From Patescibacteria group bacterium (GTDB taxonomy: Bacteria > Patescibacteriota > Patescibacteriia > GWA2-46-9), in NCBI GenBank assembly GCA_041675205.1, contig JBAYUF010000001.1, positions 148,863 through 212,862 on the forward strand: a stretch of 64,000 bases of DNA, read 5' to 3'. Positions 721-33,762 of the stretch are shown here, piece after piece. Position 1 is the first letter of the stretch; the number at the start of each line of letters is the position of its first letter. A program made the translations under genes and the position numbers. Under the pieces are notes generated by a model. That model searched no databases. It saw only the letters and a program-made list of their open reading frames with translations, and was not told the origin of the DNA.

Positions 721-1707
721 ATGGCAGTTATATACGACACTATAATCATTGGCGGTGGTCCGGCGGCGACGGGTGCTGGGGTGTATGCGGCTCGAAAGCG
801 TATGAAGACGTTACTGCTTACTGAGTCGTTCGGTGGTCAGTCGATTGTTTCGGACGATATTCAAAACTGGATTGGTGAGCCACACGTGTCTGGTATTGAG
901 CTGATGCAAAAGTTGAAAGCTCATCTCAGCGCCTACGCTGATGTTCTTGAAATTAAAGAAGGGGTGCGCGCCACCGAAGTTGTGAAAATAAAGTGTCGAG
1001 AGAATCGCATATGCGACTTTGTTGTTACGACGACGAATGGCACAAAGTACACAACAAAAACCGTCATTGTTACGACTGGTGCGAGGCGGCGGATGCTTGG
1101 GGTGCCGGGTGAAGCAAAACTGAACGGGAAGGGTGTGGCATACTGTTCAACGTGCGATGCGCCGCTCTTTAAAGGTAAAACCGTCGCTGTTGTTGGTGGC
1201 GGGAATGCTGGGTTAGAAGCGGTTGAGGATTTGTTTCCCTATGCGGAAAAAGTTTATTTACTCGTGCATGGCGATGCACCAACGGGCGACCCCGTAGTGT
1301 ACGCGAAAGTGAAGGGCAATGAGAAATTGAGTATTTTAACAAATGCTGAAATAAAAAAAGTGTCCGGTGATACATTTTTAACCTCGATTACCTATACCGT
1401 TGACGGTGCGAAAGAAGAACGTGAATTGCCCGTGTCCGGATTATTTATTGAAATTGGTTCTGTTCCGAATTCAGAGCCGGTGGCTAGTTTAGTTGACCTC
1501 GACAAGGCCAAACAAGTAGTGGTGAATCCTCGTACCTGCGCTACATCCCAAGCTGGTATTTTTTCGGCCGGAGACGTAACTGATGACCCATTCAAACAAA
1601 ATAATATTTCTGCCGGGGACGGCGTGAAAGCAGCACTTTCTGCCTACTATTACCTCATGGAGCAAGAACGGGCGAACCCGATGCTTGAAAGTGCTGACGC
1701 GAGGTAA
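721..1707 (+). CDS. trxB: thioredoxin-disulfide reductase
   Basis: FAD motif IIIGGGPAATGAGVYAARK, redox-active CSTCD, NAD(P) motif VAVVGGGNAGLEA and C-terminal GIFSAGDV. ATG at 721. Confidence 0.85.
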   Translation: MAVIYDTIIIGGGPAATGAGVYAARKRMKTLLLTESFGGQSIVSDDIQNWIGEPHVSGIELMQKLKAHLSAYADVLEIKEGVRATEVVKIKCRENRICDFVVTTTNGTKYTTKTVIVTTGARRRMLGVPGEAKLNGKGVAYCSTCDAPLFKGKTVAVVGGGNAGLEAVEDLFPYAEKVYLLVHGDAPTGDPVVYAKVKGNEKLSILTNAEIKKVSGDTFLTSITYTVDGAKEERELPVSGLFIEIGSVPNSEPVASLVDLDKAKQVVVNPRTCATSQAGIFSAGDVTDDPFKQNNISAGDGVKAALSAYYYLMEQERANPMLESADAR

Positions 1708-1814
1708 AGCTATTTGACACACCAGCTTACCCGCCGTTAAATAAAGAAGTCAGTTCCACAACTTCATCAAGGGGGAGGGCTTTTGGAGTCGCTCTTTCAC
1801 AGGAGGAACGAGTC

Positions 1815-2387
1815 ATGGATGGTTTGGAGCTTGTCGTGCGGTTGGACTACCAGTCGCCGCCGTTGGTGGCGCACTTGCGTGAGACGGGTATGACTGCCCA
1901 CATCATTCGTGGAGGTACGATTATTCATCTCGAGTCTGTGATTTCCGGATATCGAGTGCCTGAGCTTTTGGAGAGCCAGTTGCAGCGAGACACGGGGACC
2001 ATCCGGCTTCAAATCCCTGAACGGGGTGGCAAAGACGTTGGCTTCGGCACTATCGTCTGCGGCCTGAGCGGCTGCAAGATACGGCCGTATTGGTCGTCTG
2101 CGTTTCCCAAAGTGTGCGGTGAACACGCTCGCTTCACTGGTTCAAAGGGCCTCATCACCGTGACGTACCGGCCCAAAAGGAGGTGTTGGACAATCTCTCG
2201 TTACCTGGTGAAACGTACCGGAAATCTCGCCGAGGTGCTGCCCTCGATTCTCTGGCAGGGGTGCGAAGAGGTGATGCCAAGCCACGTGTGGGAACTTTTC
2301 GGTGCGGCATGTGTCGCAGCGCAACAGAAGGCGGAGTGCCCGCGTTGTGTGCACGCGCATTTCGCGCTTCCATTCCGGCACCATTGA
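1815..2387 (+). CDS. hypothetical Cys-rich protein (GC-rich)
   Basis: AGGAGG 7 nt upstream of ATG 1815. Followed by a strong hairpin at 2402-2431. No recognisable family. Confidence 0.4.
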   Translation: MDGLELVVRLDYQSPPLVAHLRETGMTAHIIRGGTIIHLESVISGYRVPELLESQLQRDTGTIRLQIPERGGKDVGFGTIVCGLSGCKIRPYWSSAFPKVCGEHARFTGSKGLITVTYRPKRRCWTISRYLVKRTGNLAEVLPSILWQGCEEVMPSHVWELFGAACVAAQQKAECPRCVHAHFALPFRHH

Positions 2388-2401
2388 GGTGAAATTTTCT
2401 C

Positions 2402-2431
2402 GTGGGGCGGTTGCAACAGCAGCCGCCCCAC
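2402..2431. terminator. bidirectional stem-loop terminator
   Basis: GTGGGGCGG-ttgcaacagcag-CCGCCCCAC, a perfect 9-bp GC stem between convergent genes. Confidence 0.5.
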
Positions 2432-2462
2432 GCCCGTTAATTTGATAAAGAAAAGCGCCGCC

Positions 2463-2739
2463 TCACGGTGGGAGAGGCGGCGACTTCTGGAAGTACTTGC
2501 TGCGGTCCACCCACATGAGAGCGGCGACCCCGAGAACGGCGATTGCGCCGTCAAGCAAGTACATTGTCTTGTAGCCGGCGATGGTGTAAGGAACCAGGCC
2601 GGCGAACGAAAGGATTAGGAGGACGAAGGCGACAAGTGCGCCTCCAACTGCGGCCTTTGATCGTCTGAGTGCCCTCCAGTTGATTCGAATCTTCTTGCGC
2701 CGCCGCCGAGGCCGAGCCGTACGTTTTTTGTTCTTCACG
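2463..2739 (-). CDS. small membrane protein with Arg/Lys-rich N-terminus
   Basis: GTG start preceded by GGAGG (reverse strand 2737-2752). Basic N-terminal stretch then two hydrophobic helices. Confidence 0.4.
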
Positions 2740-2931
2740 GTGAACCTCCAAGCCGTTGTGGCGAACAAACCTTACGCCTGGCAAAGGGGATGGGTCAAGC
2801 AGTGCCTTGCTTCATAAACCTTGAAAACGTATCCTTCGACTACGTTCAGGATAAATAGTGAGCAAGCATACCTCTCTGTTCACTGATTGTGCGTATTTCT
2901 GGTATGATGCGGCAGTCCCAATCTTGAGATT

Positions 2932-2996
2932 TTGGAGAGGTCGCATATCCCTTCACAGGGACTTCCTTGTTGGTCGGTGGTCTAGCGCACTCGATT
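2932..2996 (+). pseudogene. tRNA-Ser 5' fragment copy (degenerate, with ~30-nt insertion)
   Basis: ttttGGAGAGGTCGCATA is identical to the 5' acceptor/D-arm of the tRNA at 3066. It resumes GGTGGTCTAGCGCACTCG (tRNA has AGTGGTCTAGTGCGCTCG) after an inserted hairpin. No anticodon or T-arm follows. Confidence 0.4.
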
Positions 2997-3065
2997 GTTG
3001 AAAATCCTGTCATTCATAGTTATTAAATAATAAGGACGGGAGAAAGCGTTCATTGTATTTTTGGC

Positions 3066-3154
<89 letters not shown>

Positions 3155-3249
3155 AAATAGAATGCATACCGCAAGGTATCAGAGGTGGAGATTTATGGTG
3201 AGTGGGGTGAATCAGTTTCACTCTTGGCGTAAAAGTCGATATTTAAAAT

Positions 3250-4338
3250 ATGAAATTTGAAGGCGCGCCACAATTTAAGCCAGAAGAAAAATTACAGGAA
3301 CGCTTGCAGGCGCAAGTGGAAGTTTTTGCCGACAAAGGCGTAGAAAACTTTACAGAAGAGCAAGCTAAAATACTAAAATATTCTGCCGAACTTTCTAAAA
3401 TAAAAGATTTAAACAACTTACCACCGGATTTGCCGGAAGAGCTTGTTGCTCTAATTCAAAAACATAAAGACACTTATGTAAATTTCTTGCGCCAAGAAAG
3501 AAAATTGGAAACCTCTTTCATTGAAGAAAATATCAAAACGTATAAGGAGAAGTTTCAACCAGTAATCGCCGAATTGAAGGCAAAAATGGCGCATGGAAAT
3601 TTCAAAGAACTTCCTGAATATCTTGGTTCTGGAAGCAATGGCTCAGCCTTTCGAATTGAGGTGGATGGCAAAACGTACGCCGCGAAATTCTCAAAAAGTA
3701 TTACTCAAGTAAATTTTGAGATCAAGCCACTTCTTCGAGCAGAGGGTATTCCACACACTTCCCAGCTTGTCAGCTATTCTTTTGACGATGGCGTGGTGAT
3801 TATGGAGCTATTGGAAGGAACGGAGGTAGCAAATTTTACACCAGAAGAAGCACCAGAATATTCTGACGAACACATAATTCAACTCATTGACACGGTGCGA
3901 GAACTCGACGCGAAAGGACTTGTTATTGACCCGAAGGCGTCTAATTTTATGTATGACCCGGAGCAAGGGTTTTCTGTTTTGGACTACCATTTAAAAACTG
4001 CTGGTAGTAGATACGGACTTCCGCAAGAAATAATTAGCTTGAGAATTGCTCTTACGGCAAGAAAATTTGAAACACTTGACTACAAAGCTCCCGATTTCGA
4101 GGAAAAAGAAAAAGCACAGTCAATAGAACGAAATAAAATTTATTTGCCGTTAATGGTTCGTCTGTTCGGTATTCTAAAAGAAAAATATCCTGATATTCTT
4201 GCAGAGTGGCAAAGACAGCAGGATGAAGATAAGAAAAATCCGAATATGTCAGTTCCCGATTTGATTGACAGAAGATATATTTCACAAAATCCTGAGTTAG
4301 AACCTCATATTAAAAAATTAGAGGAAATGGGTTTTTAA
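3250..4338 (+). CDS. eukaryotic-like (atypical) protein kinase domain protein with N-terminal coiled-coil region
   Basis: Gly-rich loop LGSGSNGSAF, lysine in YAAKFSK, catalytic-loop-like IDPKASNF (D-x-K-x-x-N), and VLDY in the DFG position. AT-rich. Confidence 0.55.
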   Translation: MKFEGAPQFKPEEKLQERLQAQVEVFADKGVENFTEEQAKILKYSAELSKIKDLNNLPPDLPEELVALIQKHKDTYVNFLRQERKLETSFIEENIKTYKEKFQPVIAELKAKMAHGNFKELPEYLGSGSNGSAFRIEVDGKTYAAKFSKSITQVNFEIKPLLRAEGIPHTSQLVSYSFDDGVVIMELLEGTEVANFTPEEAPEYSDEHIIQLIDTVRELDAKGLVIDPKASNFMYDPEQGFSVLDYHLKTAGSRYGLPQEIISLRIALTARKFETLDYKAPDFEEKEKAQSIERNKIYLPLMVRLFGILKEKYPDILAEWQRQQDEDKKNPNMSVPDLIDRRYISQNPELEPHIKKLEEMGF

Positions 4339-4352
4339 GATGTTAGATTTAT

Positions 4353-4808
4353 ATGATTCTTTACCACGGCTCTCGACATAGAGTAGATAAGCTAGAAAGA
4401 CGTCAGGCGCAGGCTGCTGATGGTCTTACTGTTCCAGAGGGAGAACTACTCGAGGCAATATATCTCACCCCGGATCGTGGTTTTGCAATTGCTATGGCAG
4501 CGCGACCCGATGGGCTAACAGAGATTAATGATGAAGAACACAAGATTCATTTTGAGCATCCCGAATTGTTTAACCCAGAGCAAGAGATTTTTCTTTATGC
4601 TATTGCTGCTGAATCCTTAAACGGCGGAAGAATCGAGAAAATTGACGAAAGGCAATACGCAATACTGGATGCCAAAGAAATTATTCCGAGTGCAGTCGAA
4701 GAGCTTCGGGCAGGAGAAGTCGAGAAATACTACGAACTTACAAATTGGAAAAGAGAAAGCGAAAAGGATATAAATAGTGAGATGCGTAATAGTGATTCTC
4801 GAAGATAA
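4353..4808 (+). CDS. hypothetical 151-aa protein; possible minimal PARP/DarT-like ADP-ribosyltransferase fold
   Basis: N-terminal ILYHGSRHR (compare PARP LLWHGSR). AIYLTPD (compare GIYFAD). EIFLY (compare NEYIVY). Starts 15 nt after the kinase-like gene. Confidence 0.35.
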   Translation: MILYHGSRHRVDKLERRQAQAADGLTVPEGELLEAIYLTPDRGFAIAMAARPDGLTEINDEEHKIHFEHPELFNPEQEIFLYAIAAESLNGGRIEKIDERQYAILDAKEIIPSAVEELRAGEVEKYYELTNWKRESEKDINSEMRNSDSRR

Positions 4809-4934
4809 GATATTGACCCAGGTCCGCAAATTCTTGTTTGGCCCAATTGCTTGAAATTTCGTACAATATGCTTACTACAGTAATGCCCGACCTTGGTAGT
4901 CCGAGGAATTTCCTTACTAGCATGGAAAAAATAA

Positions 4935-5162
4935 ATGAAAACTATGGCAAAAAATCTAATAACAATATCGTATCTAACAAAAAATATCTCAACAGTAATC
5001 GGCTTAGTTTTGATTTGGCGCGGTATTTGGTATGTGCTAGATGAGCTAGATATGCTGTTTTTTGATGGTGGTCACATTTGGACCACGGTAGTGGGCATCA
5101 TTGTTGGTTTCCTCATTCTATATATACCAGATAAAGATTTGAAAGAAATTGAAAAAATGTAA
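4935..5162 (+). CDS. small membrane protein (2 TM)
   Basis: 75-aa ORF with two hydrophobic helices. AT-rich island. Confidence 0.4.
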   Translation: MKTMAKNLITISYLTKNISTVIGLVLIWRGIWYVLDELDMLFFDGGHIWTTVVGIIVGFLILYIPDKDLKEIEKM

Positions 5163-5204
5163 TGAAATTGCGAACGACATTGAAATAGAGGACTTGCAAG
5201 TTGC

Positions 5205-5558
5205 ATGATAGTGAATCAGAAAATTCGGGGTGGCATACTAACCACTATTGGCTATATACTTTCACCGCTCTCGTGGTGGAATGATTTGCTTATCAATATT
5301 CCGTTGGCGTATGCATTTGCATTTCCATTCGGACTTATATCGAGAGATTTATTTCTTCCAATGATGGTTTTGGGTTATTGGATAACAAACGTTGTTGGTT
5401 TTATCTTGATGCATCACGGGGTTAAGGACATCCTCTCGAAAGAGGAAGGCAGCTATACACGTAAGGAATTAGTAAAAGATTTTGCTTTTTCACTTGCCTA
5501 CACCGTACTCGTTGTTGCCCTTGTTGCAATAGGCTGGCTAAAATTTCCTTTGGAATAG
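5205..5558 (+). CDS. membrane protein (3-4 TM), unknown function
   Basis: 117-aa hydrophobic ORF. AT-rich island. Confidence 0.45.
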   Translation: MIVNQKIRGGILTTIGYILSPLSWWNDLLINIPLAYAFAFPFGLISRDLFLPMMVLGYWITNVVGFILMHHGVKDILSKEEGSYTRKELVKDFAFSLAYTVLVVALVAIGWLKFPLE

Positions 5559-5594
5559 GTTAGCTAGCAGTAATATGGTTTTGATTTAAACAGT

Positions 5595-6071
5595 ATGGCT
5601 GATAGTAAAAAGTTTGATGAACTCATAGACAATGAGAAATACCAAGTTTTTTTATTCACCAGTTCCGGTAATATACCATTTCATTTTGCGGCTCATCCTT
5701 GGTTTGTGATTAATAATCGTGGCTTAATTTCTAGATGGGAAGTTCTTTTCAGAAAAATGTATCACGAGACGAATGGGGGGCATTTGTATAAAAATTTCTT
5801 TCCGCTATTTCAAGGAATTGAGGTAGTTCATTTTTCGCGCAAGAGTGTTTGGAAGGCAAAGTTGCTTGGTAGCATAGAGGGTGATACTGCGAAAAAAATG
5901 GTGTCGTTTATAGAGAATTCTTATTCCACGTATCCTTTTCGAGATAGGTATTTTTTGACTGGTCCAAACAGTAACACCTATCCGCAGTGGGTTCTTGATC
6001 ATTTTCCTGAGTTTGCAGTGAAATTACCGTGGAATGCCTTTGGTAAGAACTATGCACGCATGGTAAAATAA
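5595..6071 (+). CDS. hypothetical protein
   Basis: 158-aa ORF in the AT-rich island. Motifs HPWFVINNRG and WEVLF. No confident family. Confidence 0.45.
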   Translation: MADSKKFDELIDNEKYQVFLFTSSGNIPFHFAAHPWFVINNRGLISRWEVLFRKMYHETNGGHLYKNFFPLFQGIEVVHFSRKSVWKAKLLGSIEGDTAKKMVSFIENSYSTYPFRDRYFLTGPNSNTYPQWVLDHFPEFAVKLPWNAFGKNYARMVK

Positions 6072-6174
6072 AAAAAGAAAAAAATATGCTGCATAGTCAT
6101 CAAACAACAACCTGGTCTAGCTTCGTTAGCAATAACACCTCCTTTTGATAGAAGCGGGGGTCTATGATGCATTG

Positions 6175-6197
6175 TCCCGCTAACAGGCGGGTTTTTT
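6175..6197 (+). terminator. rho-independent terminator
   Basis: CCCGC-taacag-GCGGG followed by TTTTTTATTTTT. Confidence 0.5.
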
Positions 6198-6225
6198 ATT
6201 TTTACCATTTTCAATAGTCAATACT

Positions 6226-6898: not shown

Positions 6899-7612
6899 AT
6901 GAATGAAATGTTTGTTAAAGCAATAAAAACTGGAATTTTTGAAGAAGGGGAGGATTTACTTGCCTTTATAATTCGTTACGTCAAAAGTATTCAGGATCAG
7001 TCCATCATTGTTGTCACTTCGAAGATTGTCGCTTTATCTGAAAACAGAACAGCGATTGTTCCCAATAAGAAAGCAAAAGAAAAGTTAATTCTTGGCGAAA
7101 GCCAATTCGCACTACCAACGAAACACGTATGGCTTACCGTCAAAGACGGTTTATTGATGGCCAACGCTGGAATTGATGAATCAAACGCAAATGGGAAATT
7201 GATACTGCTACCAAAAGATAGTTTCAAAGCCGCGCGATTGCTTCGTAAGAAATTGCTAGTGAAGTACAAAGTGAAAGAGCTCGGCGTGCTCATTACCGAC
7301 AGCCGCACTAGTCCGCTTCGCGCTGGCGTAACGGGCGTGGCACTTGGTTATGCCGGCTTTCGGGGTGTGAAAGATTATCGGGGCAAGCGGGATATTTTTG
7401 GTAGAATCGCCAAATATTCTCGAACTAATGTGGCGGATTGTTTGGCAACTGCCGCGGTGCTTGTAATGGGAGAAGGCAACGAACAACAGCCATTAGCGGT
7501 CATTAAAAAAAGTGGTATAGAGTTTTGTGATACCGTGAATCGTAAAGAGTTAGAAATTGCTATAAAAGATGATATGTATCGGCCATTGTTTTCGAAATTA
7601 CGGAAGAAGTAG
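6899..7612 (+). CDS. CofE-like protein (F420-0:gamma-glutamyl ligase family fold)
   Basis: VVTSKIVALSENR, ANAGIDESNANG, GVLITDSRTSPLRAGVTGVALGYAG. These are characteristic of the CofE/FbiB N-terminal family. Confidence 0.65.
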   Translation: MNEMFVKAIKTGIFEEGEDLLAFIIRYVKSIQDQSIIVVTSKIVALSENRTAIVPNKKAKEKLILGESQFALPTKHVWLTVKDGLLMANAGIDESNANGKLILLPKDSFKAARLLRKKLLVKYKVKELGVLITDSRTSPLRAGVTGVALGYAGFRGVKDYRGKRDIFGRIAKYSRTNVADCLATAAVLVMGEGNEQQPLAVIKKSGIEFCDTVNRKELEIAIKDDMYRPLFSKLRKK

Positions 7613-7619
7613 TAACTAT

Positions 7620-8639
7620 ATGACAACGAAAAAACCATTTGCGCCGCTTCTCGGTCAGGTGTTGCAAAAAATTGCACCTCGCATTGGCGCAAAAGTTGTG
7701 ATGGAGCCCGAGTGGAATGTTGTTGGGCAAATTATCTTTAAGAATGGTCGAAAGCGGTATTTTCGTTATTCCAGTCTTGACTTGAATTCTTTAGGTTCGT
7801 CTGAAGTAGCCAAAGATAAAGACTACGCTAATTTTTTTATGAAACGCATGGGGTACAAAATTATACCTCACAGCAAAACGTTTTACAGAGATGATTGGGG
7901 TAAGGCAATTGGTCAACCACGGCGGAACATTGCGGCGGCGCACAGGCATGCGCAGAAAATTGGTTTTCCTGTTGTGGTTAAACCAAACAGTGGTAGCCAG
8001 GGGTCTGGTGTGTCACTCGCGCACAATAAACAAGAATTTTATCGAGCCGTAAAAGCGGCGTTTACAAATGACCGCATTGTTCTTGTGCAGCCACAAGTGA
8101 AAGGGAAGGACTACCGTCTGGTGGTTCTCGATAAGCGAGTCATTTCTGCTTATGAACGGGAACCTATAAGCGTCGTTGGCAATGGAAAGGCAACCATCAT
8201 GCAGCTTATAAAGCTAAAGCAGCAAGAGTTTATTCTTGCAGGCCGCGACACGCAACTAAGGCCACATGACCCACGTATAAAAGAAAAACTAAAGCGTGAC
8301 GGCCTTACGTTTCGTTCAATTGTGCCGCGCGGCGAGCGCATTTATTTACTCAACAATGCAAACCTTTCAACGGGTGGAGATTCGGTAGACGTTACTGCTA
8401 TTGTTCACCCGAGCTTCAAAAAGCTCGCAGTACAATTAACTAAAGACATGGGGCTCCGACTTTGTGGCGTTGACCTTATGGTACGAGGCGACATTACCCA
8501 AAAACCAAATGAGTATTGGATTCTAGAAATTAATTCTGCACCCGGCCTCGACCACTACGTGCAAACTGGTAAGGCTCAAGAAAAAATTGTTGAAGCGTTG
8601 TATCTCGAGGTTTTAAAAAGTATGGAAAAGAGTGGGTAA
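7620..8639 (+). CDS. ATP-grasp domain ligase (RimK/CofF/glutathione-synthetase-like)
   Basis: PVVVKPNSGSQGSGVSL, DYRLVVLD, and the C-terminal ILEINSAPGL ATP-grasp signature. ATG at 7620, just after the CofE-like stop. Confidence 0.7.
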   Translation: MTTKKPFAPLLGQVLQKIAPRIGAKVVMEPEWNVVGQIIFKNGRKRYFRYSSLDLNSLGSSEVAKDKDYANFFMKRMGYKIIPHSKTFYRDDWGKAIGQPRRNIAAAHRHAQKIGFPVVVKPNSGSQGSGVSLAHNKQEFYRAVKAAFTNDRIVLVQPQVKGKDYRLVVLDKRVISAYEREPISVVGNGKATIMQLIKLKQQEFILAGRDTQLRPHDPRIKEKLKRDGLTFRSIVPRGERIYLLNNANLSTGGDSVDVTAIVHPSFKKLAVQLTKDMGLRLCGVDLMVRGDITQKPNEYWILEINSAPGLDHYVQTGKAQEKIVEALYLEVLKSMEKSG

Positions 8640-8683
8640 TTTTTTAAACTTTCCAAGTTTTCACATTCGAGCCAGAATACAAT

Positions 8684-9310
8684 ATGTCTAAAAATATCAT
8701 TCGTCATATCTGGTTTGATTTTAGCGGCACGCTCGCTTTTTTGAAGCTCGAGCGGCACAACCGCTTACGCTATGAGTCATATGCAAACGTCATGGGTAAG
8801 CCTGTAACCGAGGGCTTGATGAATGACTACGAGAAGCTGTTTAAGCAATGCAATGGTAGTAACGCAAGCGTTTTTCGTTCCCTGGGCCAGTCGTCTAATT
8901 TTTGGTCAGAACAGGTAAATAAGGTAGACCCAGTTGAACTCTATGAGCTTTCGGCAAGCAATGTGCCAGCCATTCTCAAGCAAATCAAGGAACATAGGGC
9001 AATTTCTCTTTTCTCAAATATTGAGGTAGTAAATATTTTGCCCGCATTAGGTATTGACCCGTTACTGTTCACGAATATTTTAAGTGCGGGCATGGTGAAA
9101 GAACCGAAACCTGCTTTGGACGGGTTTCATAAGCTAGTGGAATTAAGTGGAGTACCGGCAAACGAAATTTTATATATTGGTGACAGCGAGGTAAAGGATA
9201 TTATGCCGGCGAAGGCAGTCGGAATGCAGACCGCTATGATGTGGCAGAAATCAGCTGCGGCGAATCATTCTTTTGAAAAATTTGAAGAGATTTTGGATTT
9301 CTTGGAGTAG
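8684..9310 (+). CDS. HAD-superfamily hydrolase
   Basis: Motif I WFDFSGTL. Motif IV YIGDSEVKDIMPA. Confidence 0.6.
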   Translation: MSKNIIRHIWFDFSGTLAFLKLERHNRLRYESYANVMGKPVTEGLMNDYEKLFKQCNGSNASVFRSLGQSSNFWSEQVNKVDPVELYELSASNVPAILKQIKEHRAISLFSNIEVVNILPALGIDPLLFTNILSAGMVKEPKPALDGFHKLVELSGVPANEILYIGDSEVKDIMPAKAVGMQTAMMWQKSAAANHSFEKFEEILDFLE

Positions 9311-27101: not shown

Positions 27102-27392
27102 ATGGACGATCAAAAGAAAGACGAAGGCACGGAGGGCAAGCTCATGTTTATTAAAGAAATCGCTAAATATTTTAGGGATTTTCTTGAGACAGATTTTTAT
27201 AAATATAAATTTCAAAAACGCGCCGGCCAGCTGAAAAATGAGGACGGTGTGCTTATGGGTTTCAATCTTCAAAAGTATCTATCGTTTAGGGCTTCAATAT
27301 CGCAGCTCGTTAACGCGGATTGTGATAAAAACTTTTTTAATAAACTGGAAAAAGTAGTTTATAAAACAAATGAGGGCTACTTTATTTTTTGA
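27102..27392 (+). CDS. small hypothetical protein, first ORF of the AT-rich defense-like cassette
   Basis: 96-aa AT-rich ORF ending about 24 nt before the OLD-family gene. Confidence 0.4.
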   Translation: MDDQKKDEGTEGKLMFIKEIAKYFRDFLETDFYKYKFQKRAGQLKNEDGVLMGFNLQKYLSFRASISQLVNADCDKNFFNKLEKVVYKTNEGYFIF

Positions 27393-27415
27393 GACTGCAT
27401 TCTGAATTAATTTTT

Positions 27416-29488
27416 ATGAAAATTAGATCAATAAAAATATCAAACATTCTAAGTTTTGAGTACAAAGATGATATTGACCTCTGTGAATCGATCGTTTTTA
27501 ATAAGAACGTTAATATTCTGATAGGTCCAAACGGAGTCGGGAAAAGTAATTTTTTGGAAATTATCAATCAAATTTTTAAAAGAATTTTATTTAAGCAGCC
27601 TGATTTCGATTTCGATACTATTTCAAAGCACGAGAACAATCCGGCCGATACTTCTTTGAATCAAACTTTGGATTTGACGCGTCGCTCCGTGAGTCATTTA
27701 AAAAAAAATAAATACAGTAGTTCAAAAATTAAAAAAATTAAAATAGAAATTCTGCTTAATGATAACGATGTTAGCAATTTGAAATTTATTCATTCAAATG
27801 CGGATAAGATAAATGATATTTTGAATAAATATTCACGTATAAAGCTAAATTTTGATGGTAAAATTATTTTTGACGACATTGAAAAGATCAAGTCCCTCAC
27901 CCTTATTTTGGAAGATAAAGAGGATACTAACATTTTTTCTATTTCAGAGTTGTCCGGTAGCACGGCTGGAACTTTTATAACAAAATATTTCGAGTATTTC
28001 GAGTTTGTTCAGAAAATTATTTTCATTGCAAATGAACGAGAAGGTGAAAGTTGGTCAGAGCTTAAAACAAGCTTCGTTTTAATAGGTTGCTACCGTAACT
28101 ATAATAGTTTTTCTAACTCTTATAGTCTTAGTGGTTATCTTGTTAATGCCATCAGGGATGTTGAGAACAAACGAAAAGAAGAAAATACTAAGAGCGCCGA
28201 TGTTGCGGAACCACTAGTTTTCGAGATGGTAAAAAAGATTTTATCATATCGACATTCTCAGCTCCTTTTTTCAGAACAGTTAAACGCTGAAGGAGTATCA
28301 AAAAAAATAAAAGAGGAGCCGTTGCTGACGAATATTAACAATTTATTAAAGCAACTCCCTCTTCAATTAGAATTGAATATTGTAAAGAAGAATCCTCACG
28401 ATATCGTTCATCAAATTTTTTTTATTGACCTCAGGGATCAAAAGAGAATCGAAGTTGAAGAATTGAGCGCTGGACAAAAGAGTGTCCTGCATTTTTTCTT
28501 CAGCATATTTGGATACGATTTAAGTAATGGTCTGCTCATTATTGATGAACCGGAACTTCATCTACATCCACAAATTCAAGAGCAGTACATGTTGTTAATT
28601 GAAAAAGTAGCCCTCGATAATGACATGCAGTTTATTCTGGCGACTCATTCTCCAATTTTTGTATCACGAGAAACAATTAATAATGTCTTCAGATTTAGTA
28701 AGGCTACTCACTTCACGCACGTATCCCATCCTCCCATAGCAGCTTCTGACCAAGAATTGGTCAGAATATTAAATTATACTAATAGCTCAAAAATTTTCTT
28801 TTCTAAAAAAGTTGTACTTGTCGAAGGCGAGTCCGATGAATTTTTTTACCGAAGATTTTATGAGCACTTACAAAAGCAGAATAGAGGAGATGATAATATC
28901 GAATTTCTTGCAATAAAAGGGAAGGGCGCAAAGGAGCTATGGTTTGATTTTTTACAAAAATTTGACGTAATGACCTTCTTTATTGGCGACTGGGATAATA
29001 TTATTGAGTCAGGTCTGCTAAGTAATTCAGAGTTAGAGAAATATAAAAATAATTTTAGACAACAGGCCTTTAAGGGAATTGATAGTGGTGTTTTTTTGCA
29101 AAAAAACAGTAAGGATCGAATAATTTTATTAGAAAATTTGAAAAAATATCTCGAAAAAAATGACCCAAATCTCTTGTCTAGTTTGAGGGATCTTATTGAT
29201 TACTTAACGATAAGACACTTGCCCTGCAGAGAGATTGTTGAGTTTATAAATTTAAACGATCGATCAACTTTAGCCAGCCTCAATGTTCAGATAGAAAGTT
29301 TATATGCTCAGAATCGCTATTATCTTAAACGGGGCGAATTGGAAGATTATCTAGGATTACGAACGAAAAGCTTGCAAGATGTTATCTATTTCATTGAGAA
29401 TGATTTTAATTCCTGGTTAGCGAATACTTCCTTCAAATCGGAAGTTGAAGAGATTACTCAAATATTCTCTGACATTATTAGAAAATGA
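27416..29488 (+). CDS. OLD-family ATP-dependent nuclease: ABC-type ATPase fused to a C-terminal Toprim domain
   Basis: Walker A GPNGVGKSN. ABC signature LSAGQKS. Walker B LLIIDEPELHLHP. H-loop LATHSP. Toprim Glu in VVLVEGESDEF and DxD in FFIGDWDN. About 30% GC. Confidence 0.8.
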   Translation: MKIRSIKISNILSFEYKDDIDLCESIVFNKNVNILIGPNGVGKSNFLEIINQIFKRILFKQPDFDFDTISKHENNPADTSLNQTLDLTRRSVSHLKKNKYSSSKIKKIKIEILLNDNDVSNLKFIHSNADKINDILNKYSRIKLNFDGKIIFDDIEKIKSLTLILEDKEDTNIFSISELSGSTAGTFITKYFEYFEFVQKIIFIANEREGESWSELKTSFVLIGCYRNYNSFSNSYSLSGYLVNAIRDVENKRKEENTKSADVAEPLVFEMVKKILSYRHSQLLFSEQLNAEGVSKKIKEEPLLTNINNLLKQLPLQLELNIVKKNPHDIVHQIFFIDLRDQKRIEVEELSAGQKSVLHFFFSIFGYDLSNGLLIIDEPELHLHPQIQEQYMLLIEKVALDNDMQFILATHSPIFVSRETINNVFRFSKATHFTHVSHPPIAASDQELVRILNYTNSSKIFFSKKVVLVEGESDEFFYRRFYEHLQKQNRGDDNIEFLAIKGKGAKELWFDFLQKFDVMTFFIGDWDNIIESGLLSNSELEKYKNNFRQQAFKGIDSGVFLQKNSKDRIILLENLKKYLEKNDPNLLSSLRDLIDYLTIRHLPCREIVEFINLNDRSTLASLNVQIESLYAQNRYYLKRGELEDYLGLRTKSLQDVIYFIENDFNSWLANTSFKSEVEEITQIFSDIIRK

Positions 29489-30603
29489 CGCACGATCCAT
29501 TAGAACAAATTGAGAAAAATTTGCGCGTTCTTGTGGATGATATATTGACTGATAAATTCGGACCTCTGTGGACTGAAGTTGCCGGTTTGGGTCCCGATTG
29601 GATCAAAAAGATGCAAGAAAAAACTATTGCAGATAAGACAGCGCAAGGAAACACCATCCTGTATGAAAAATTAATTTCATATGCTGAATTTGGAGATTTA
29701 ACTAAGCTTTTGCAGTTACACCAAATACTATTCAAGCCAGTTTTTTCTAAATGGGAGAAGTACTTCACCCTTATTAAGATCGCGGAAGAATTAAGAAATA
29801 CCGTAAAGCATCATCGCGATATAAGCCCCGCTCAAGAGAAATTGCTATTCGGTATTGCCGGTGAGATTGATGATGCTATAAATCTGTGGAGAATTGGTGC
29901 AAGATTAAATATAAAAAGGCTGGTATTTGGCTTTTCTGATTATATACCAACACAACATAAATCTGACGAAGAAATATTAAGAGAATCAGAAAGAAGCATT
30001 CTCGATTGGCAAAAACTGTTTTTAAATTTCTTTGAGGCCAAGGGGCTTGATATAAGTAGAATAGAAAATGTTTATAATTCTCTTAATTTAAAAATAAAGG
30101 GTTATGGTCTTTATCTTCAAACCTCGACCTCTTCACAGCCCAATCCAAACTCTGAAATAAATGGTGTCGAATGTAAGCATATATATACTCAATTGTTGCG
30201 CAACGAAGGTTCTCATATTTCTTTGGATGAATTATTTGCATTTATAAAGAAACAGTATTGGAATATTTCATATGATTTAAGAGATACTATAAATATAGAT
30301 GCCCTTAAAGAATGGTCTAGTGATAGTGCTGGTCGAGAACCTTCTAGTTCAAGCAGATCAAATGGAGTTTACACGGGCATAGAGTATGCTTTGCTGCATG
30401 GAAAAATAAGGATCGGAGCGACAAATTATTCAGACGAAGAAGGCCACGGTGGTAGGTTGCAGATATTCAATGAACAAAATAGCCATGGATGGTTTCCGCA
30501 CAAGATTATAACCCCTCAGCATCTTTTGGGTTTTATTACGGGCAGTGTTACACCCCGATCTATACAATATCTTTTACTCATGTCGTGCAATACCAACGAA
30601 TAA
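29485..30603 (+). CDS. HEPN-domain protein (Swt1-like R-x4-H) with uncharacterised C-terminal domain
   Basis: ATGA overlap with the upstream stop. N-terminal domain carries IAEELRNTVKHHRD (R-x4-H-H), the Swt1-type HEPN signature. Confidence 0.55.
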   Translation: MTHDPLEQIEKNLRVLVDDILTDKFGPLWTEVAGLGPDWIKKMQEKTIADKTAQGNTILYEKLISYAEFGDLTKLLQLHQILFKPVFSKWEKYFTLIKIAEELRNTVKHHRDISPAQEKLLFGIAGEIDDAINLWRIGARLNIKRLVFGFSDYIPTQHKSDEEILRESERSILDWQKLFLNFFEAKGLDISRIENVYNSLNLKIKGYGLYLQTSTSSQPNPNSEINGVECKHIYTQLLRNEGSHISLDELFAFIKKQYWNISYDLRDTINIDALKEWSSDSAGREPSSSSRSNGVYTGIEYALLHGKIRIGATNYSDEEGHGGRLQIFNEQNSHGWFPHKIITPQHLLGFITGSVTPRSIQYLLLMSCNTNE

Positions 30604-30814: not shown

Positions 30815-33244
30815 ATGAAAAGAACATTCATCAGCGCCTGTTTAGCAGTTTTCATCATTCTTCCTTTTGGGGCGAGTGCTGCAACGCTTTCAAAAAATCC
30901 ATTCTCAGTGATTGATCAGACCGTTTCCATTTATGCGAGTTCGGGGGAGAATTTTGATACACTATCGTCATACAGTTCCGTTTGCTTCAACGATACTAAT
31001 CATTGTTTCCTTAGCACCAGCTTTAGTAGTTCAAGCGTAAAATGGTTATGGACTTCCACCAAAATAACTATCCCCATTCCTTCGGATCTCAACCCAATCG
31101 GGGACATTATCGTCTACAACCAAGGCTCGCGGCAGGTCTGCTATGGGGGAGACTATTGTTATAGCGAAACCTATGCACAAGAGAAGGCTCGAATTAGTTA
31201 TCAGATTCAGCCCGTGATCGTTTCAGTGTCTCCGTTAGTGCCCAAGCAAAATGAACAGGTCGTGATTAATGGTTACGGTTTTGGGCCCACATCGGGTCAG
31301 GTGCTCTTCGATGATTCGGGTGCCTCGGTTATCAACTGGAGCGACCGATCAATTACGGTCATCGCATCGCAGGGGGTAGGCGTGGCAAAAAAAATAAAGG
31401 TAAGCAGTTCAGCCGGAACAAGCACAACCTTCGGACTTTTTGAATATTTAGACCAGATATCTGCACCCCAAGCCTGGCAGACTGTGGGCACTGCCCCCGT
31501 AGTAGTGGCCGTCATCGATGATGGTGTCTATATTAATCATCCGGATCTTTCACCCTATATATGGCGTAATCCTGGTGAGGTGGTGGGTAACGGAATCGAT
31601 GACGATCATAATGGGTACATCGATGATGTGTTGGGCTATAATTTTGTCGATAATTCATCCCGAGTGGATCCTAAGGGCAGTCACGGTACGTTGGTCGCAA
31701 GCACGGTTTTGGCGACCACCGGTCGCGGGGTGATGGGCAATGCTTCAAAGATGAACATTCGCATTATGCCTGTTATCGTGAGTGATGTTCAAGGAAACTC
31801 TTCCTTTCAATCTCTGGCGGCAGGCATTCGCTACGCTGCTGACAATGGTGCGGATGTAATAAATATCAGTCTGGGTAGTCGCGGCACCATTGGTTACACC
31901 GATTCTCTGACGCCCGCAATTCAATATGCTTTTGATCACGGGAAGGTAGTGGTGGTTGCGGGAGGGAACGGGGATTTGCAAGCTAATAATGGTGAGAACC
32001 TTAATTTTACACCCCAGAGCCCAGTCTGCAACAACAATGGGTCACAATTGGCGCTTGGTGTAGGGGCGCTCGATAATACAGACGTGCAAACAAATGGTAG
32101 GGTACGCACGGGTTGGTCAAACCATGGCAGTAATTGTATCAATATTTCTGCGCCCGGAGTGGGTATAGTTGGAGCATCAGTTCCCAGTTTTAATAGCGGT
32201 TCATTTTACAGCCAGGAGGACGGGACTTCTTATTCGAGCCCCATCGTTGCGGGTGTAGCCGCTATGGTGAAAGGGACGACTCCCAAAATGAAAAACTGGG
32301 AAATAATGAATCGTGTTATTGGAACGGCTGATAATATCGATAATGTTAATCTTGGTTTTGCGGGTCAGATCGGAGGGAGAGTAAACGCATACAAAGCTAT
32401 TGGCAATCAATCCACCTCTGGCTCCATTGTGTCTGTCAGCCCTAACGAAGCATTTGCAGGTACTCCGGTGGTAGTTACCATCAAAAATTTTTCTTCGGAT
32501 TATACGCTGCGTATTTCCGGGCAAGGGACACCAGGTGGTAGTACGACTGACTCTCCAATTTCTTGGTCGAGTATCGCACCATTGGCGGCCGATAAGTTCT
32601 CGGTAGTTATTCCAGCAAGCCTGCCGACGGGGACGTATTCTTTCCGTCTAGTTTCTCCGACTGGTAATGAATATGGTACGGGTGAAAATAGTCTACATGT
32701 CACAAATGACGGTCGTTCTGTTCCTAAAAATCCGAGCCCCGAACAAAGCATTCCAACAACGCCTTCAAGTCAGGTGACAGCACCGACTCAAGGCACTCCT
32801 GTGGTAACGCCTAGCACTAAGTCGTTATTGGCCAGGCTGCTAGGTTATATTGTCCTCCAGGTGCAGCAGCATGGGGAAGCGTGGTATATACATCCAGACA
32901 CAGGATTGCGCTACTATATGCAGGATGGTTCAGTGGCTTATCAAATGATGCGGTCATTTGGCCTAGGAATTACAGATACTGATTTGGGCAAAATTCCGAC
33001 TGTGGGTAGTGAGCAAGCGATGAAAGATAGCACGAGCGTTTGTAACGCTAACTCAACCGCTAATAAATTAAAAGGTAAAATTCTTCTGCAGGTTCAACAG
33101 CATGGCGAAGCTTGGTATGTCCACCCAGATAAGTGTCGTAGAATATATATGAAAGATGGGGGTGTTGCTTATCAGATAATGCGATTCTTGAGCCTGGGCA
33201 TCACGAATACTGATTTGACTAAGATACCTGAGGGGAGTTTATGA
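30815..33244 (+). CDS. secreted subtilisin-like serine protease (S8) with Ig/IPT-like domains and two C-terminal GEAWY modules
   Basis: Signal peptide. Catalytic Asp VAVIDDGVYINHPD, His GSHGTLVAST, Ser GTSYSSPIVAG. C-terminal repeats ...QQHGEAWYIHP.../...QQHGEAWYVHP... Confidence 0.85.
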   Translation: MKRTFISACLAVFIILPFGASAATLSKNPFSVIDQTVSIYASSGENFDTLSSYSSVCFNDTNHCFLSTSFSSSSVKWLWTSTKITIPIPSDLNPIGDIIVYNQGSRQVCYGGDYCYSETYAQEKARISYQIQPVIVSVSPLVPKQNEQVVINGYGFGPTSGQVLFDDSGASVINWSDRSITVIASQGVGVAKKIKVSSSAGTSTTFGLFEYLDQISAPQAWQTVGTAPVVVAVIDDGVYINHPDLSPYIWRNPGEVVGNGIDDDHNGYIDDVLGYNFVDNSSRVDPKGSHGTLVASTVLATTGRGVMGNASKMNIRIMPVIVSDVQGNSSFQSLAAGIRYAADNGADVINISLGSRGTIGYTDSLTPAIQYAFDHGKVVVVAGGNGDLQANNGENLNFTPQSPVCNNNGSQLALGVGALDNTDVQTNGRVRTGWSNHGSNCINISAPGVGIVGASVPSFNSGSFYSQEDGTSYSSPIVAGVAAMVKGTTPKMKNWEIMNRVIGTADNIDNVNLGFAGQIGGRVNAYKAIGNQSTSGSIVSVSPNEAFAGTPVVVTIKNFSSDYTLRISGQGTPGGSTTDSPISWSSIAPLAADKFSVVIPASLPTGTYSFRLVSPTGNEYGTGENSLHVTNDGRSVPKNPSPEQSIPTTPSSQVTAPTQGTPVVTPSTKSLLARLLGYIVLQVQQHGEAWYIHPDTGLRYYMQDGSVAYQMMRSFGLGITDTDLGKIPTVGSEQAMKDSTSVCNANSTANKLKGKILLQVQQHGEAWYVHPDKCRRIYMKDGGVAYQIMRFLSLGITNTDLTKIPEGSL

Positions 33245-33762
33245 ATAAATTAATCTTACCAGCAGCCATACTACTATCCAGTATTATTTTGGGCGGATTT
33301 TATTACGCTGCTGAAATTAATGAGCAGAGTTCAATTGAAAGACAACAAGAAGTAACAATTAAAAAAGAAAAAAGCATTGAAGAAACTAGACCGCAATTAC
33401 AACAGAAAGTTGAGGATCAGGAGGAAATTATGAACGAAAAACCAGTCGATATTTACCCGCAAAATAATAATGACCAGATTCTCATTAACTATAGATTGGA
33501 TGTCCAAAATGGAGATGATATGAGAAATAGTTTATTAGAGACTGCCTTTAATTCGCCAGAACAAATGTGTCCCAGTGTCATTGCCACTATGGCTACACGG
33601 CAACATGCCTATTATTATGTTTTAGACGATATTGCCAAACTTACATTAAAGTATGGTCAATATCGTGGATCGATTAACTATATAAAAAACAATCTTGATG
33701 GTTTGGATAATGTAATTTCAATTGTTAAAGATCAATGTGCTTCGTTGGGCTACTCATTCTAA
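33241..33762 (+). CDS. hypothetical membrane-anchored/secreted protein
   Basis: ATGA overlap with the protease stop. N-terminal hydrophobic helix. 173 aa. Confidence 0.45.
   Translation: MNKLILPAAILLSSIILGGFYYAAEINEQSSIERQQEVTIKKEKSIEETRPQLQQKVEDQEEIMNEKPVDIYPQNNNDQILINYRLDVQNGDDMRNSLLETAFNSPEQMCPSVIATMATRQHAYYYVLDDIAKLTLKYGQYRGSINYIKNNLDGLDNVISIVKDQCASLGYSF

Follow-up and report, generated by a model that had tools for sequence, protein, structure and literature searches.

The DNA analyzed here is a 64,000-nucleotide (nt) stretch, referred to below as the window, of contig JBAYUF010000001.1 from a Patescibacteria group bacterium. Directly 3′ of a tRNA-Ser gene with the anticodon GGA, the window carries a patch of lowered guanine-plus-cytosine (GC) content that begins with a gene for a 362-amino acid (aa) atypical protein-kinase-like enzyme, followed by a gene for a 151-aa stand-alone protein with a predicted ADP-ribosyltransferase (ART) fold. 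The explanation that we prefer, with a probability of roughly 60% for the whole of it, is that this patch consists of accessory genes and that its kinase and ART-fold genes are independent of each other. Under this explanation, the kinase would have arrived here through insertion at the 3′ end of the tRNA, and would travel as cargo of tRNA-targeted insertions; its product would be an active ATP-dependent phosphotransferase with a protein-kinase-like fold and Ser/Thr-type chemistry. The 151-aa protein would bind NAD+ through H5-G6-S7 and Y37 and would work without an antitoxin or immunity partner, either transferring ADP-ribose onto a cytoplasmic target or, especially in the copy found here with its alanine at position 85, only binding or hydrolyzing NAD+.

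Comparison of loci allowed us to separate the two genes. An earlier reading, made from the letters of the window alone (the sequence-only reading), had joined them into an effector, toxin or signalling module. Our comparison drew on 28 loci for the kinase and about 70 for the ART, most of them with several kilobases (kb) of flanking sequence; in what follows, L-numbers denote these comparison loci and P-numbers denote homologous proteins. Using all open reading frames (ORFs) of the window as tblastn queries, an ART homologue was found at none of the 28 kinase loci and a kinase at none of the approximately 70 ART loci. This holds for the closest relatives as well, since the kinases most similar to that of the window (L009, L097 and L010, at 84%, 83% and 80% identity) have no ART neighbor, and the most similar ART homologues (P0004 and P0002, at 72% and 71% identity) have no kinase neighbor. 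All-against-all clustering of neighboring genes recovered synteny only between near-identical contigs, and neither this clustering nor tallies of Pfam matches revealed a recurrent partner gene for either family. The genes seen beside ART homologues include MscL (three times), NUDIX (three times) and ASCH (twice), together with singletons such as AlaRS, IF-1, Pth, QueA and TRM5, while kinase neighbors are Fic and HSP70 proteins (twice each) and otherwise singletons. No antitoxin, macrodomain or immunity-like gene lies beside the ART homologues, none of the five ORFs of the patch has a significant match in PADLOC or PHROGs, and a signal peptide is not evident in either the kinase or the 151-aa sequence. 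Because the two families fail to co-occur at these 28 and approximately 70 loci, closest relatives included, the locus comparison indicates that the kinase and the small ART are independent accessory genes that are adjacent here by chance, and not a toxin or signalling pair. In L101, a 291-aa gene that precedes the ART homologue was considered as a possible truncated kinase, but this candidate was rejected, its product being P-loop NTPase-like and unrelated to the kinase.

The 362-aa protein (ORF at 3250-4338, plus strand) is an atypical, intact protein-kinase-like enzyme that stands apart from RIO, ABC1 and Pkinase as curated families, as seen from its reading frame, its homologues, an AlphaFold 2 (AF2) model, Foldseek searches and a profile alignment. 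More than 147 homologues exist at 50-85% identity. In the AF2 model, which has a predicted local distance difference test score (pLDDT) of 92, a helical N-terminal region (residues 16-114) precedes a kinase core (approximately residues 120-270) and C-terminal helices (residues 283-359). The N-terminus, which the sequence-only reading had described as a coiled coil, is modelled with confidence as helical. The elements predicted to carry out the chemistry are a Gly-rich ATP loop, the K146-E157 pair, a D227-x-K229-x-x-N232 loop and the metal-binding Asp D245. On the plus strand, the Gly loop LGSGSNGSAF (residues 125-134) is encoded at 3622-3651, the AAK motif at 3679-3687 with the lysine K146 at 3685-3687, E157 at 3718-3720, the catalytic loop IDPKASNF (D227, K229, N232) at 3925-3948, and the DY pair equivalent to DFG (D245-Y246) at 3982-3987. 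An alignment of 64 homologues shows L125, G128, G131, K146, E157, D227, N232 and D245 to be invariant and K229 to be kept in at least 90% of sequences; the Lys and Asp residues on which the kinase assignment depends are intact. A Foldseek search with the model returned 952 PDB chains at E ≤ 1e-3, the top 50 all being kinases; the leading matches are Rio2, MSK1, CK2 and IRAK4, with Rio2 best (E 4.9e-7, template modeling (TM) score 0.34-0.44). The profile of the family also aligns IDPKPSNF...LDY with RDLKPSN...LDFG of MAPK8 (JNK), and thereby confirms the assignments of D227, K229, N232 and D245.

Membership in a known kinase family is a different matter. The sequence-only reading had called the protein similar to eukaryotic protein kinases, which is borne out for the fold and for the intact Lys, Asp, Asn and Asp residues, but not for a Hanks-type assignment. 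No curated Pfam or NCBIfam model matches at its cut-off, and the NCBIfam match is a weak one to PrkT only. Among the 64 members, weak Pfam matches go to ABC1 in 57 (best 2.5e-6), FTA2 in 52, Pkinase in 28 (best 1.8e-5) and APH in six; the window kinase itself scores 12.6 bits for ABC1 against a cut-off of 22.9 and has no Pkinase match. With all three of the RIO, ABC1 and Pkinase families the protein shares the kinase fold, as well as the Gly loop, the Lys-Glu pair, the D-x-K-x-x-N loop and the metal-binding Asp of a D-[FY] motif. Its core is short, as in the RIO kinases: after D245 the model passes through a short strand into helices, with no recognisable activation segment. No RIO model is found among the Pfam matches of the 64 members, however, despite the structural likeness to Rio2 (PDB 1ZAR). 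ABC1/UbiB (PF03109) is the nearest family in sequence, and the D-P-x-x-x-N loop resembles that of its members, although the scores stay short of membership. UbiB proteins carry a KxGQ motif at the N-terminus and have an Ala-rich loop in place of the Gly loop, whereas the 362-aa protein has the canonical Gly-rich loop GSGSNGS. From the Hanks-type kinases (PF00069) it differs in lacking both a model match and an APE-like end of the activation segment, no APE motif being visible in its sequence. The helical region of residues 1-115 is strongly conserved, with Q22 and E24 invariant, and no counterpart of it was identified in the RIO, ABC1 or Pkinase families.

Kinase homologues occur in metagenome-assembled genomes (MAGs) labelled Parcubacteria, Paceibacteria, Magasanikbacteria, Peribacteria, Gracilibacteria, Saccharibacteria and Altimarinota, and one at 38% identity occurs in Pacearchaeota, such that the family spans CPR (candidate phyla radiation) bacteria and some DPANN archaea. 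In automated third-party annotation MAG records, six kinase-bearing loci (L013, L014, L015, L022, L024 and L032) carry the labels Gammaproteobacteria, Pseudomonadales, Methanosarcinales or Bacteroidales; such labels may stem from mis-binned CPR or DPANN contigs and not from the actual hosts.

The most unusual result of the analysis is the behavior of the kinase gene at tRNA flanks. When a tRNA gene lies close by, the kinase is always on its 3′ side, by 6 to 0 in a strict automatic count and by 10 to 0 when the window, L010, L097 and L098 are added. In one set of cases the tRNA lies upstream and is co-oriented with the kinase: tRNA-Ala(TGC) at 32 nt in L009, tRNA-Leu(CAA) at 5 nt in L010, a tRNA-Asn at 85 nt in L012, tRNA-Ser(GCT) at 250 nt in L095, and tRNA-Ser(GGA) in both L097 and the window. 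In the other set the tRNA lies downstream and is convergent with the kinase (Ser-TGA in L014, Thr in L018, Asp in L027 and Asn in L098). The association exceeds the background of the same loci, with a tRNA within 100 nt of 5/54 kinase flanks versus 2/384 flanks of other genes (p 4e-4), and within 300 nt of 6/51 versus 3/369 (p 1.5e-4). The choice of tRNA is not conserved, differing even among kinases that are 80-84% identical (Ser-GGA, Ala-TGC and Leu-CAA).

Direct repeats of tRNA ends add to this picture. A significant direct repeat of the last 16-24 nt of the tRNA is found nearby for 6 of the 35 tRNAs of all loci, and each of these six is the one nearest the target gene. In L010 (6572-7776), the 23-nt sequence ATTCTCTCCTCCGGCACATATAT at the end of tRNA-Leu recurs 6 nt after the kinase stop codon, so that the repeats bracket the kinase ORF alone as a 1.1-kb unit without a recombinase of its own. 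In L018 (6445-9105), the kinase and one other ORF share a 2.6-kb segment whose boundary is a 22/23 repeat of the tRNA-Thr end, and the GC content of this segment is 0.50 versus 0.59-0.63 in its flanks. A tRNA-end repeat also lies between tRNA and kinase in L097 (3074-3363) and in L023 (1464-3722), the latter holding a chimeric kinase remnant in which only the C-terminal 153 aa are kept behind a new N-terminus. Sequence divergence points in the same direction as the repeats: the kinases of the window and L009 are 84% identical, whereas two syntenic housekeeping genes of the same genomes, one of them PGI-like and the other its neighbor, reach only 40-45%. Taken together, the 3′-sided tRNA association and the repeats in two genomes suggest that the kinase is cargo of tRNA-targeted insertion, and that the kinase, perhaps along with the ART, belongs to accessory cargo that accumulates in tRNA 3′ flanks. 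For the ART family, the homologues in L057 (2545-3232) and L072 (3516-5981) each follow a 16-nt repeat of the upstream tRNA's 3′ end (Gln and Asn, respectively), at distances of 23 and 77 nt, which places each gene just outside an att-like site. An association of the ART family as a whole with tRNAs was rejected, as its enrichment has p values of 0.1-0.27 and one lineage lies on the tRNA 5′ side.

A more elaborate version of this history can be drawn, which we hold to be doubtful. It takes the kinase gene as a self-contained, single-ORF cassette that inserts at many tRNA 3′ ends across CPR bacteria and DPANN archaea, the small ART as a further cargo of tRNA-flank islets that was captured from phage polyvalent proteins, and the window as a place where the two cargos landed in succession. 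Such a cassette would be moved in trans by a recombinase that recognizes tRNA ends, or by a mechanism that duplicates its target.

The composition of the window agrees with an islet of limited contrast. GC content is 0.35-0.44 over 3200-6200, versus 0.48-0.60 just upstream (400-nt windows), and GC content at third codon positions (GC3) is 0.33 for the kinase and 151-aa genes and 0.37-0.40 for two others of the five. The sequence-only reading had described a sharp drop. The drop itself is real, but it is moderate: against a mean GC3 of 0.474 with a standard deviation (sd) of 0.097 over the 68 long ORFs of the window, the islet lies about 1-1.5 sd low, and equally low patches occur elsewhere (27.4-30.6 kb and 33.2-33.8 kb), along with some high-GC patches. 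A tRNA-adjacent islet, as had been proposed, is supported here by composition and position but not by an integrase or a repeat of the tRNA 3′ end; the repeats found in other genomes lend the idea comparative support. Viewed next to known tRNA-targeted islands, the window shares the site immediately 3′ of a tRNA and the lower GC content, and in related kinase loci the last 17-24 nt of the tRNA recur as direct repeats that bound or abut the kinase. It differs from them in its lack of an integrase or repeat, and the kinase family in the many different tRNAs that it uses.

The 151-aa protein (ORF at 4353-4808, plus strand) can be placed in the ART superfamily by its homologues, an AF2 model, Foldseek, Pfam and hhalign. 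A search of 5.8 billion proteins yielded 35 relatives, and when 1.84 billion cluster representatives were searched exhaustively with a profile, only 99 family representatives emerged at E ≤ 1e-3, which makes the family a rare one. All of its named members are from Patescibacteria, with homologues of 121-211 aa in cellular contexts. The ORF is intact, and a protein with 100% identity, annotated as a hypothetical protein, is present on two contigs. Three elements of a predicted active site can be recognized: H5-G6-S7 at the end of strand 1 (4365-4373), as the predicted contact with the nicotinamide side of NAD+; I-Y37-L-T-P in strand 2 (4458-4472), with Y37 as the predicted NAD+-stacking tyrosine; and E76-Q-E78 with strand 5 (EIFLYAIA; 4578-4607), as the candidate third catalytic position. 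The first two are strongly conserved, with H5 kept in 70, G6 in 65, S7 in 67 and Y37 in 68 of 74 relatives, and with Y37 invariant in the 35 close relatives. Q18, A19, P28, A45, G54, F67 and Y82 (64/74) are also strongly conserved, A45 and G54 being nearly invariant. Because H-G-S, Y37 and so many other positions are conserved, a selected ligand-binding function is likely. The third position is more diverse. The E78 column holds E in 23, D in 15 and N in 7 of the 74 sequences (45/74 in all), with other residues in the rest, while position 85 at the end of strand 5 holds D in 54, N in 7 and E in 5 (66/74), with Ala in the window protein alone. The motifs quoted in the sequence-only reading for both proteins all stand at the expected codons (for the 151-aa protein, HGS at 4365-4373, IYLTP at 4458-4472 and EQE/EIFLY at 4578-4598); of the H-G-S, Y and E elements that it had picked out as catalytic, H-G-S and Y are upheld by conservation, whereas the chosen glutamate, E78, is a glutamate in only 23 of the 74 relatives.

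Structure and remote homology both point to the ART fold. The AF2 model (pLDDT 85) has a beta-beta-alpha-beta-beta-beta order, with strands at residues 2-7 and 34-39, a helix at 42-50, strands at 56-59, 64-67 and 78-85, and more strands beyond. Foldseek against the PDB places Tpt1/KptA structures in all of the top matches (probability 1.0, E 0.011, TM 0.39); lower-ranked matches are Arr and exotoxin A, and viral PARPs in a viral library (probability 0.2-0.4). In Pfam, the window protein has a single match, to DUF3990 (E 0.099, 12.8 bits, residues 1-22 on profile positions 1-22). Among the 74 members, the most frequent families, all at sub-threshold scores, are DUF3990 (24/74, best 0.0011) and ART-PolyVal (19/74, best 0.0018), with both sets of matches colinear with the profiles and a family consensus that scores 14.6 bits for ART-PolyVal. 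A scan of viral contigs then gave relatives at 33% identity over residues 1-93 of the 151-aa protein. The ORFs that hold them are at least 2,830 aa long, with the related stretch approximately 745 residues in, and ORFs of this size with an embedded ART domain are taken to encode phage polyvalent proteins. The viral domain is a bona fide ART-PolyVal (71.4 bits, E 1.7e-19, cut-off 31.2). The giant ORF in L093 (5766-14411), for example, encodes 2,882 aa with an LPD22 domain near the N-terminus and ART-PolyVal from approximately residue 745. Similar giant ORFs are carried by L102 and L103, which are IMG/VR contigs, and by L094, where the ORF has at least 1,608 aa and meets the contig end. Comparison of the 35-sequence family with the viral ART-PolyVal domain by hhalign gave 95% probability (E 4e-8) over 72 columns of the N-terminal half, aligning the motifs MxLYHG[ST] (LYHGT in the viral domain) and AIYLTPDxGFA. 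A profile search of the 5.8-billion-protein set with the wider alignment brought up no protein with a precomputed ART-family Pfam domain, the bridge to known ARTs coming instead from the viral contigs, and tblastn of the ART consensus against phage and plasmid collections gave nothing meaningful. Sequence and model together thus assign the 151-aa protein to the ART superfamily, within the H-Y-[D/E] clade, with the ART domains of polyvalent proteins as its nearest recognisable relatives. A full-text search of the literature on Patescibacteria ADP-ribosyltransferases, DUF3990 and ART-PolyVal found no paper describing the family.

The sequence-only reading had likened this protein to PARP and DarT. 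Its superfamily assignment is supported, by the Tpt1/KptA fold matches and the 95% hhalign match to ART-PolyVal, but the protein does not belong to the PARP, DarT or Tpt1 families. ART-PolyVal domains occur in polyvalent proteins of phages and conjugative elements, have H in strand 1, Y in strand 2 and D in strand 5, and have been grouped with the Tox-ART-HYD2 toxins (Iyer et al. 2017, PMC5512222). The N-terminal half of the 151-aa protein is homologous to ART-PolyVal (PF18760), by way of M-x-L-Y-H-G-[ST] and A-I-Y-L-T-P-D-x-G-F-A. It differs in that ART-PolyVal lies inside a giant, virion-delivered protein, whereas the 151-aa protein stands alone in cellular Patescibacteria genomes; the window protein has no match to the model at E ≤ 1, its C-terminal half is unaligned, and the strand-5 acidic residue is not fixed in its family and is Ala85 in the window copy. 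DUF3990 is included in the Pfam ART clan, and ART-PolyVal is among the known ART domains (PMC7955679); DUF3990 is also found as a C-terminal domain of Rhs toxins (PMC7955679; PMC4524185). The 151-aa protein has the YHGS start and the size of approximately 150 aa in common with DUF3990 (PF13151), but the window protein reaches 12.8 bits versus a cut-off of 32.2, and neither an immunity gene nor a context of Rhs or polymorphic toxins is seen at the loci of its family. Tpt1/KptA is the best match among solved structures (PDB 8TG3, 1WFX, 9LD3 and others) and has the NAD+-binding ART lobe in common. The N-terminal RNA-binding lobe of Tpt1/KptA carries an Arg-His-Arg-Arg catalytic tetrad; the 151-aa protein lacks such a lobe, beginning directly at strand 1 (M1-I-L-Y-H5). 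Tpt1/KptA has a strand 2 His (H-H-h clade), whereas the 151-aa protein has Tyr (H-Y clade; clade definitions from PMC7955679). The order HGS, Y, E-x-x-x-Y is as in PARP1 (HGS/YFA/YNE motifs, PMC7955679), where the catalytic Glu lies at the start of strand 5, as does E78 here. The family has no Pfam DarT or PARP match and no PADLOC match, and no DarG-like macrodomain, as would be expected of a DarTG system, occurs among the 84 immediate neighbors at 54 non-redundant ART loci.

Rare fusions of the small ART were also observed: P0326 (358 aa) has a C-terminal HAD phosphatase, P0250 (334 aa) has N-terminal LRV/HEAT repeats, and P0158 (251 aa) has a C-terminal hydrophobic segment. The fusions and the NUDIX neighbors (3/54 loci) are weak hints of a role linked to nucleotides or ADP-ribose. 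As a pointer to the substrate of the ART, NUDIX and HAD were rejected, three loci and one HAD fusion being too weak.

There are several findings that weigh against our explanation, and they have to be set beside the alternatives to it. For the insertion of the kinase, no repeat of the tRNA-Ser 3′ end occurs in the whole window, even at E < 5, and none was seen when the kinase-ART junction and the region after the DUF3750 gene were inspected by eye; none of the nine ORFs in 3250-9310 matches an integrase family in Pfam. The kinase lies inside a repeat-bounded segment in only 2 of 28 kinase loci, its GC content mostly tracks that of the host, and the GC dip in the window is merely about 1.5 sd. 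No kinase homologue was found in the phage, plasmid and IMG/VR collections searched, and no integrase travels with the kinase. For the ART, absolute structural similarity to solved ARTs is weak (TM 0.39, E 0.011), PDB sequences searched with the ART family profiles gave chance-level matches only, the hhalign match covers only the N-terminal half, and the third catalytic residue is not fixed at either the E78 or the position 85 column; with Ala85 and a variable E78, the window copy could be inactive. One possible reading of the kinase position is functional, with the gene benefiting from read-through of a tRNA promoter or having a role linked to tRNA or translation. Bud32, for instance, is a small RIO-like kinase that acts in KEOPS. 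The six co-oriented cases, in which 5-250 nt separate the upstream tRNA from the start codon, would fit such a role, as would the structural match to Rio2 as the single best one, the high conservation of the family (50-85% identity), which is expected of a core function, and the tracking of host GC. Yet in the four convergent cases the tRNA is on the opposite strand downstream, which makes co-transcription impossible there, and the kinase is still on the tRNA 3′ side. Nor is the tRNA always the same one (Ser, Ala, Leu, Asn, Thr and Asp all occur), and in L010 and L018 the gene lies between att-like repeats. When the sequences upstream of the kinase were aligned for seven genomes, no conserved leader emerged, and approximately 60% of kinase loci have no nearby tRNA. 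We consider a functional position quite unlikely. We assign no better odds to the simpler alternative that these are ordinary, vertically inherited hypothetical genes, with a GC dip caused by Lys/Glu-rich and membrane proteins and with the tRNA nearby by chance. The patchy composition of the window, several patches of which are equally low in GC, agrees with it, as do the missing integrase and repeat, the mostly housekeeping neighbors of the ART homologues (AlaRS, IF-1, Pth, QueA, TRM5) and the non-significant ART-tRNA proximity (p 0.1-0.27). It is at odds with the significant and one-sided kinase-tRNA association, with the repeat-bounded kinase segments of L010 and L018, with a kinase identity of 84% versus 40-45% for the syntenic housekeeping pair, and with a GC3 that is also low (0.33) and is independent of amino-acid composition.

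The remaining alternatives concern what the two proteins do, together or alone. That the kinase and the small ART form one effector, toxin or signalling module on a tRNA-integrated island is, in our judgment, very improbable. In such a module the kinase could regulate or neutralize the ART, or the two could share a target in the host, and it is true that the genes are co-oriented, lie 14 nt apart and are maybe co-transcribed up to a hairpin at 6176, that both have a GC3 of 0.33, that both families tend toward tRNA 3′ flanks, and that kinases and ARTs co-occur as effector domains of phage polyvalent proteins (PMC5512222). Their lack of co-occurrence at the 28 kinase and approximately 70 ART loci, closest relatives included, largely refutes the module; the adjacency is unique to this lineage, and the comparison found no conserved partner, antitoxin, macrodomain or immunity gene beside either family, no PADLOC or PHROGs match and no evident signal peptide. 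A more serious contender, although still an unlikely one, is that the 151-aa protein has an ART fold without ADP-ribose transfer, being a binder of NAD+ or ADP-ribose, an NAD+ glycohydrolase or, in this genome, a decaying copy. The acidic position of strand 5 is not fixed, and the alanine at position 85 is seen in the window protein alone, against D54, N7 and E5 of 74; ARTs of polyvalent proteins, for their part, are of the H/Y/D type with the Asp in strand 5 (PMC5512222). A published table counts many PARP-family members without the Glu (H-Y-I, H-Y-L, H-Y-Y) as mono-ARTs and includes active sites that deviate still more from the triad (PMC7955679). Weighing against this alternative are the strong conservation of H-G-S, Y37 and other positions, the retention of E76 and E78 where PARP1 has its catalytic Glu, at the start of strand 5, and an intact ORF whose product is 100% identical to a protein on two contigs.

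Patescibacteria have tiny genomes in which approximately half of the genes have no known function. Here, two unannotated families gain a fold and a predicted active site, the kinase being widespread in these organisms and the stand-alone ART rare and akin to effector domains that phages inject. As judged by their sequences, both proteins are new members of known superfamilies, with the 151-aa family falling below the curated ART-PolyVal and DUF3990 thresholds. In a bacterium that depends on a host, an ART lacking an antitoxin could be the sign of a new endogenous target of ADP-ribosylation, or it could be a tool against the host cell. The position of the kinase at tRNA 3′ ends is a checkable lead on gene movement: to our knowledge, few mobile elements are known in these lineages, and the kinase position therefore bears on how accessory genes move between genomes. 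The pairing of kinase and ART is incidental, and the locus comparison thus removes what would have been a tempting annotation as a kinase plus ART toxin module.

The layout of the region itself was read correctly from the start, with ARAGORN, Rfam and ORF calls agreeing on a tRNA-Ser followed by five co-oriented ORFs on the plus strand. The tRNA-Ser(GGA) gene lies at 3066-3153 (plus strand; 59.8 bits for the Rfam tRNA model), and all five ORFs lie on its 3′ side, the kinase starting at 3250 after the tRNA end at 3153. Behind the kinase and the 151-aa gene, which are separated by 14 nt, three further plus-strand ORFs follow. A 75-aa small membrane protein (4935-5162), whose hydrophobic stretches can be read from the sequence, has weak Pfam matches (Fuseless 4.9e-4, LiaF-TM 0.025). 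A 117-aa multi-pass membrane protein is encoded at 5205-5558. The last ORF (158 aa, 5595-6071) had been taken for a hypothetical protein; it is confirmed as an ORF but has a Pfam assignment, to the DUF3750 family (PF12570, 1.7e-17, 64.8 bits versus a cut-off of 25). A pattern scan and inspection of the sequence found a G+C-rich, terminator-like hairpin, CCCGCTAACAGGCGGG followed by the T-run TTTTTTATTT, at 6176-6201 on the plus strand, which is the best terminator-like site of the region. This hairpin makes a single five-gene transcription unit plausible, and the five ORFs are probably one unit, extending from approximately 3200 to 6176-6201. L052 is the only other locus in which two of the five genes occur together: there (1141-3107), a homologue of the 117-aa membrane protein with 65% identity lies 1.2 kb upstream of an ART homologue.

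The genes downstream of the patch encode ordinary-looking metabolism according to Pfam, with a Vut_1 transporter, an F420-0:gamma-glutamyl-ligase-like protein, a RimK-type ATP-grasp protein and a HAD hydrolase. The last three form a cluster at 6899-9310, in which the ligase-like and ATP-grasp ORFs overlap at 7569-7612, and which could be a small peptide- or cofactor-tailing pathway. Upstream of the tRNA, the region 1800-2800 has a high GC content (0.57-0.60) and only unconvincing, overlapping ORFs; a 190-aa ORF at 1815-2387 has a GC3 of 0.65 and no Pfam match, and no Rfam family was detected in 1800-2800, the Rfam scan of the window giving two tRNAs and nothing else. Within 2934-2995, 132 nt upstream of the tRNA, there is an exact 14-nt copy of the tRNA-Ser 5′ end (GGAGAGGTCGCATA; E 0.015), after which comes a D-arm-like stretch, GGTGGTCTAGCGCACTCG. 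Left uncalled by ARAGORN and Rfam, this segment looks like a degenerate partial copy of a tRNA with an insertion. Elsewhere in the window, the segments at 27389-30603 and 33241-33762 contain long ORFs of 699, 372 and 173 aa with GC 0.32-0.36 and GC3 0.28-0.32; these values are lower than those of the region studied here, and the segments may be further acquired ones.

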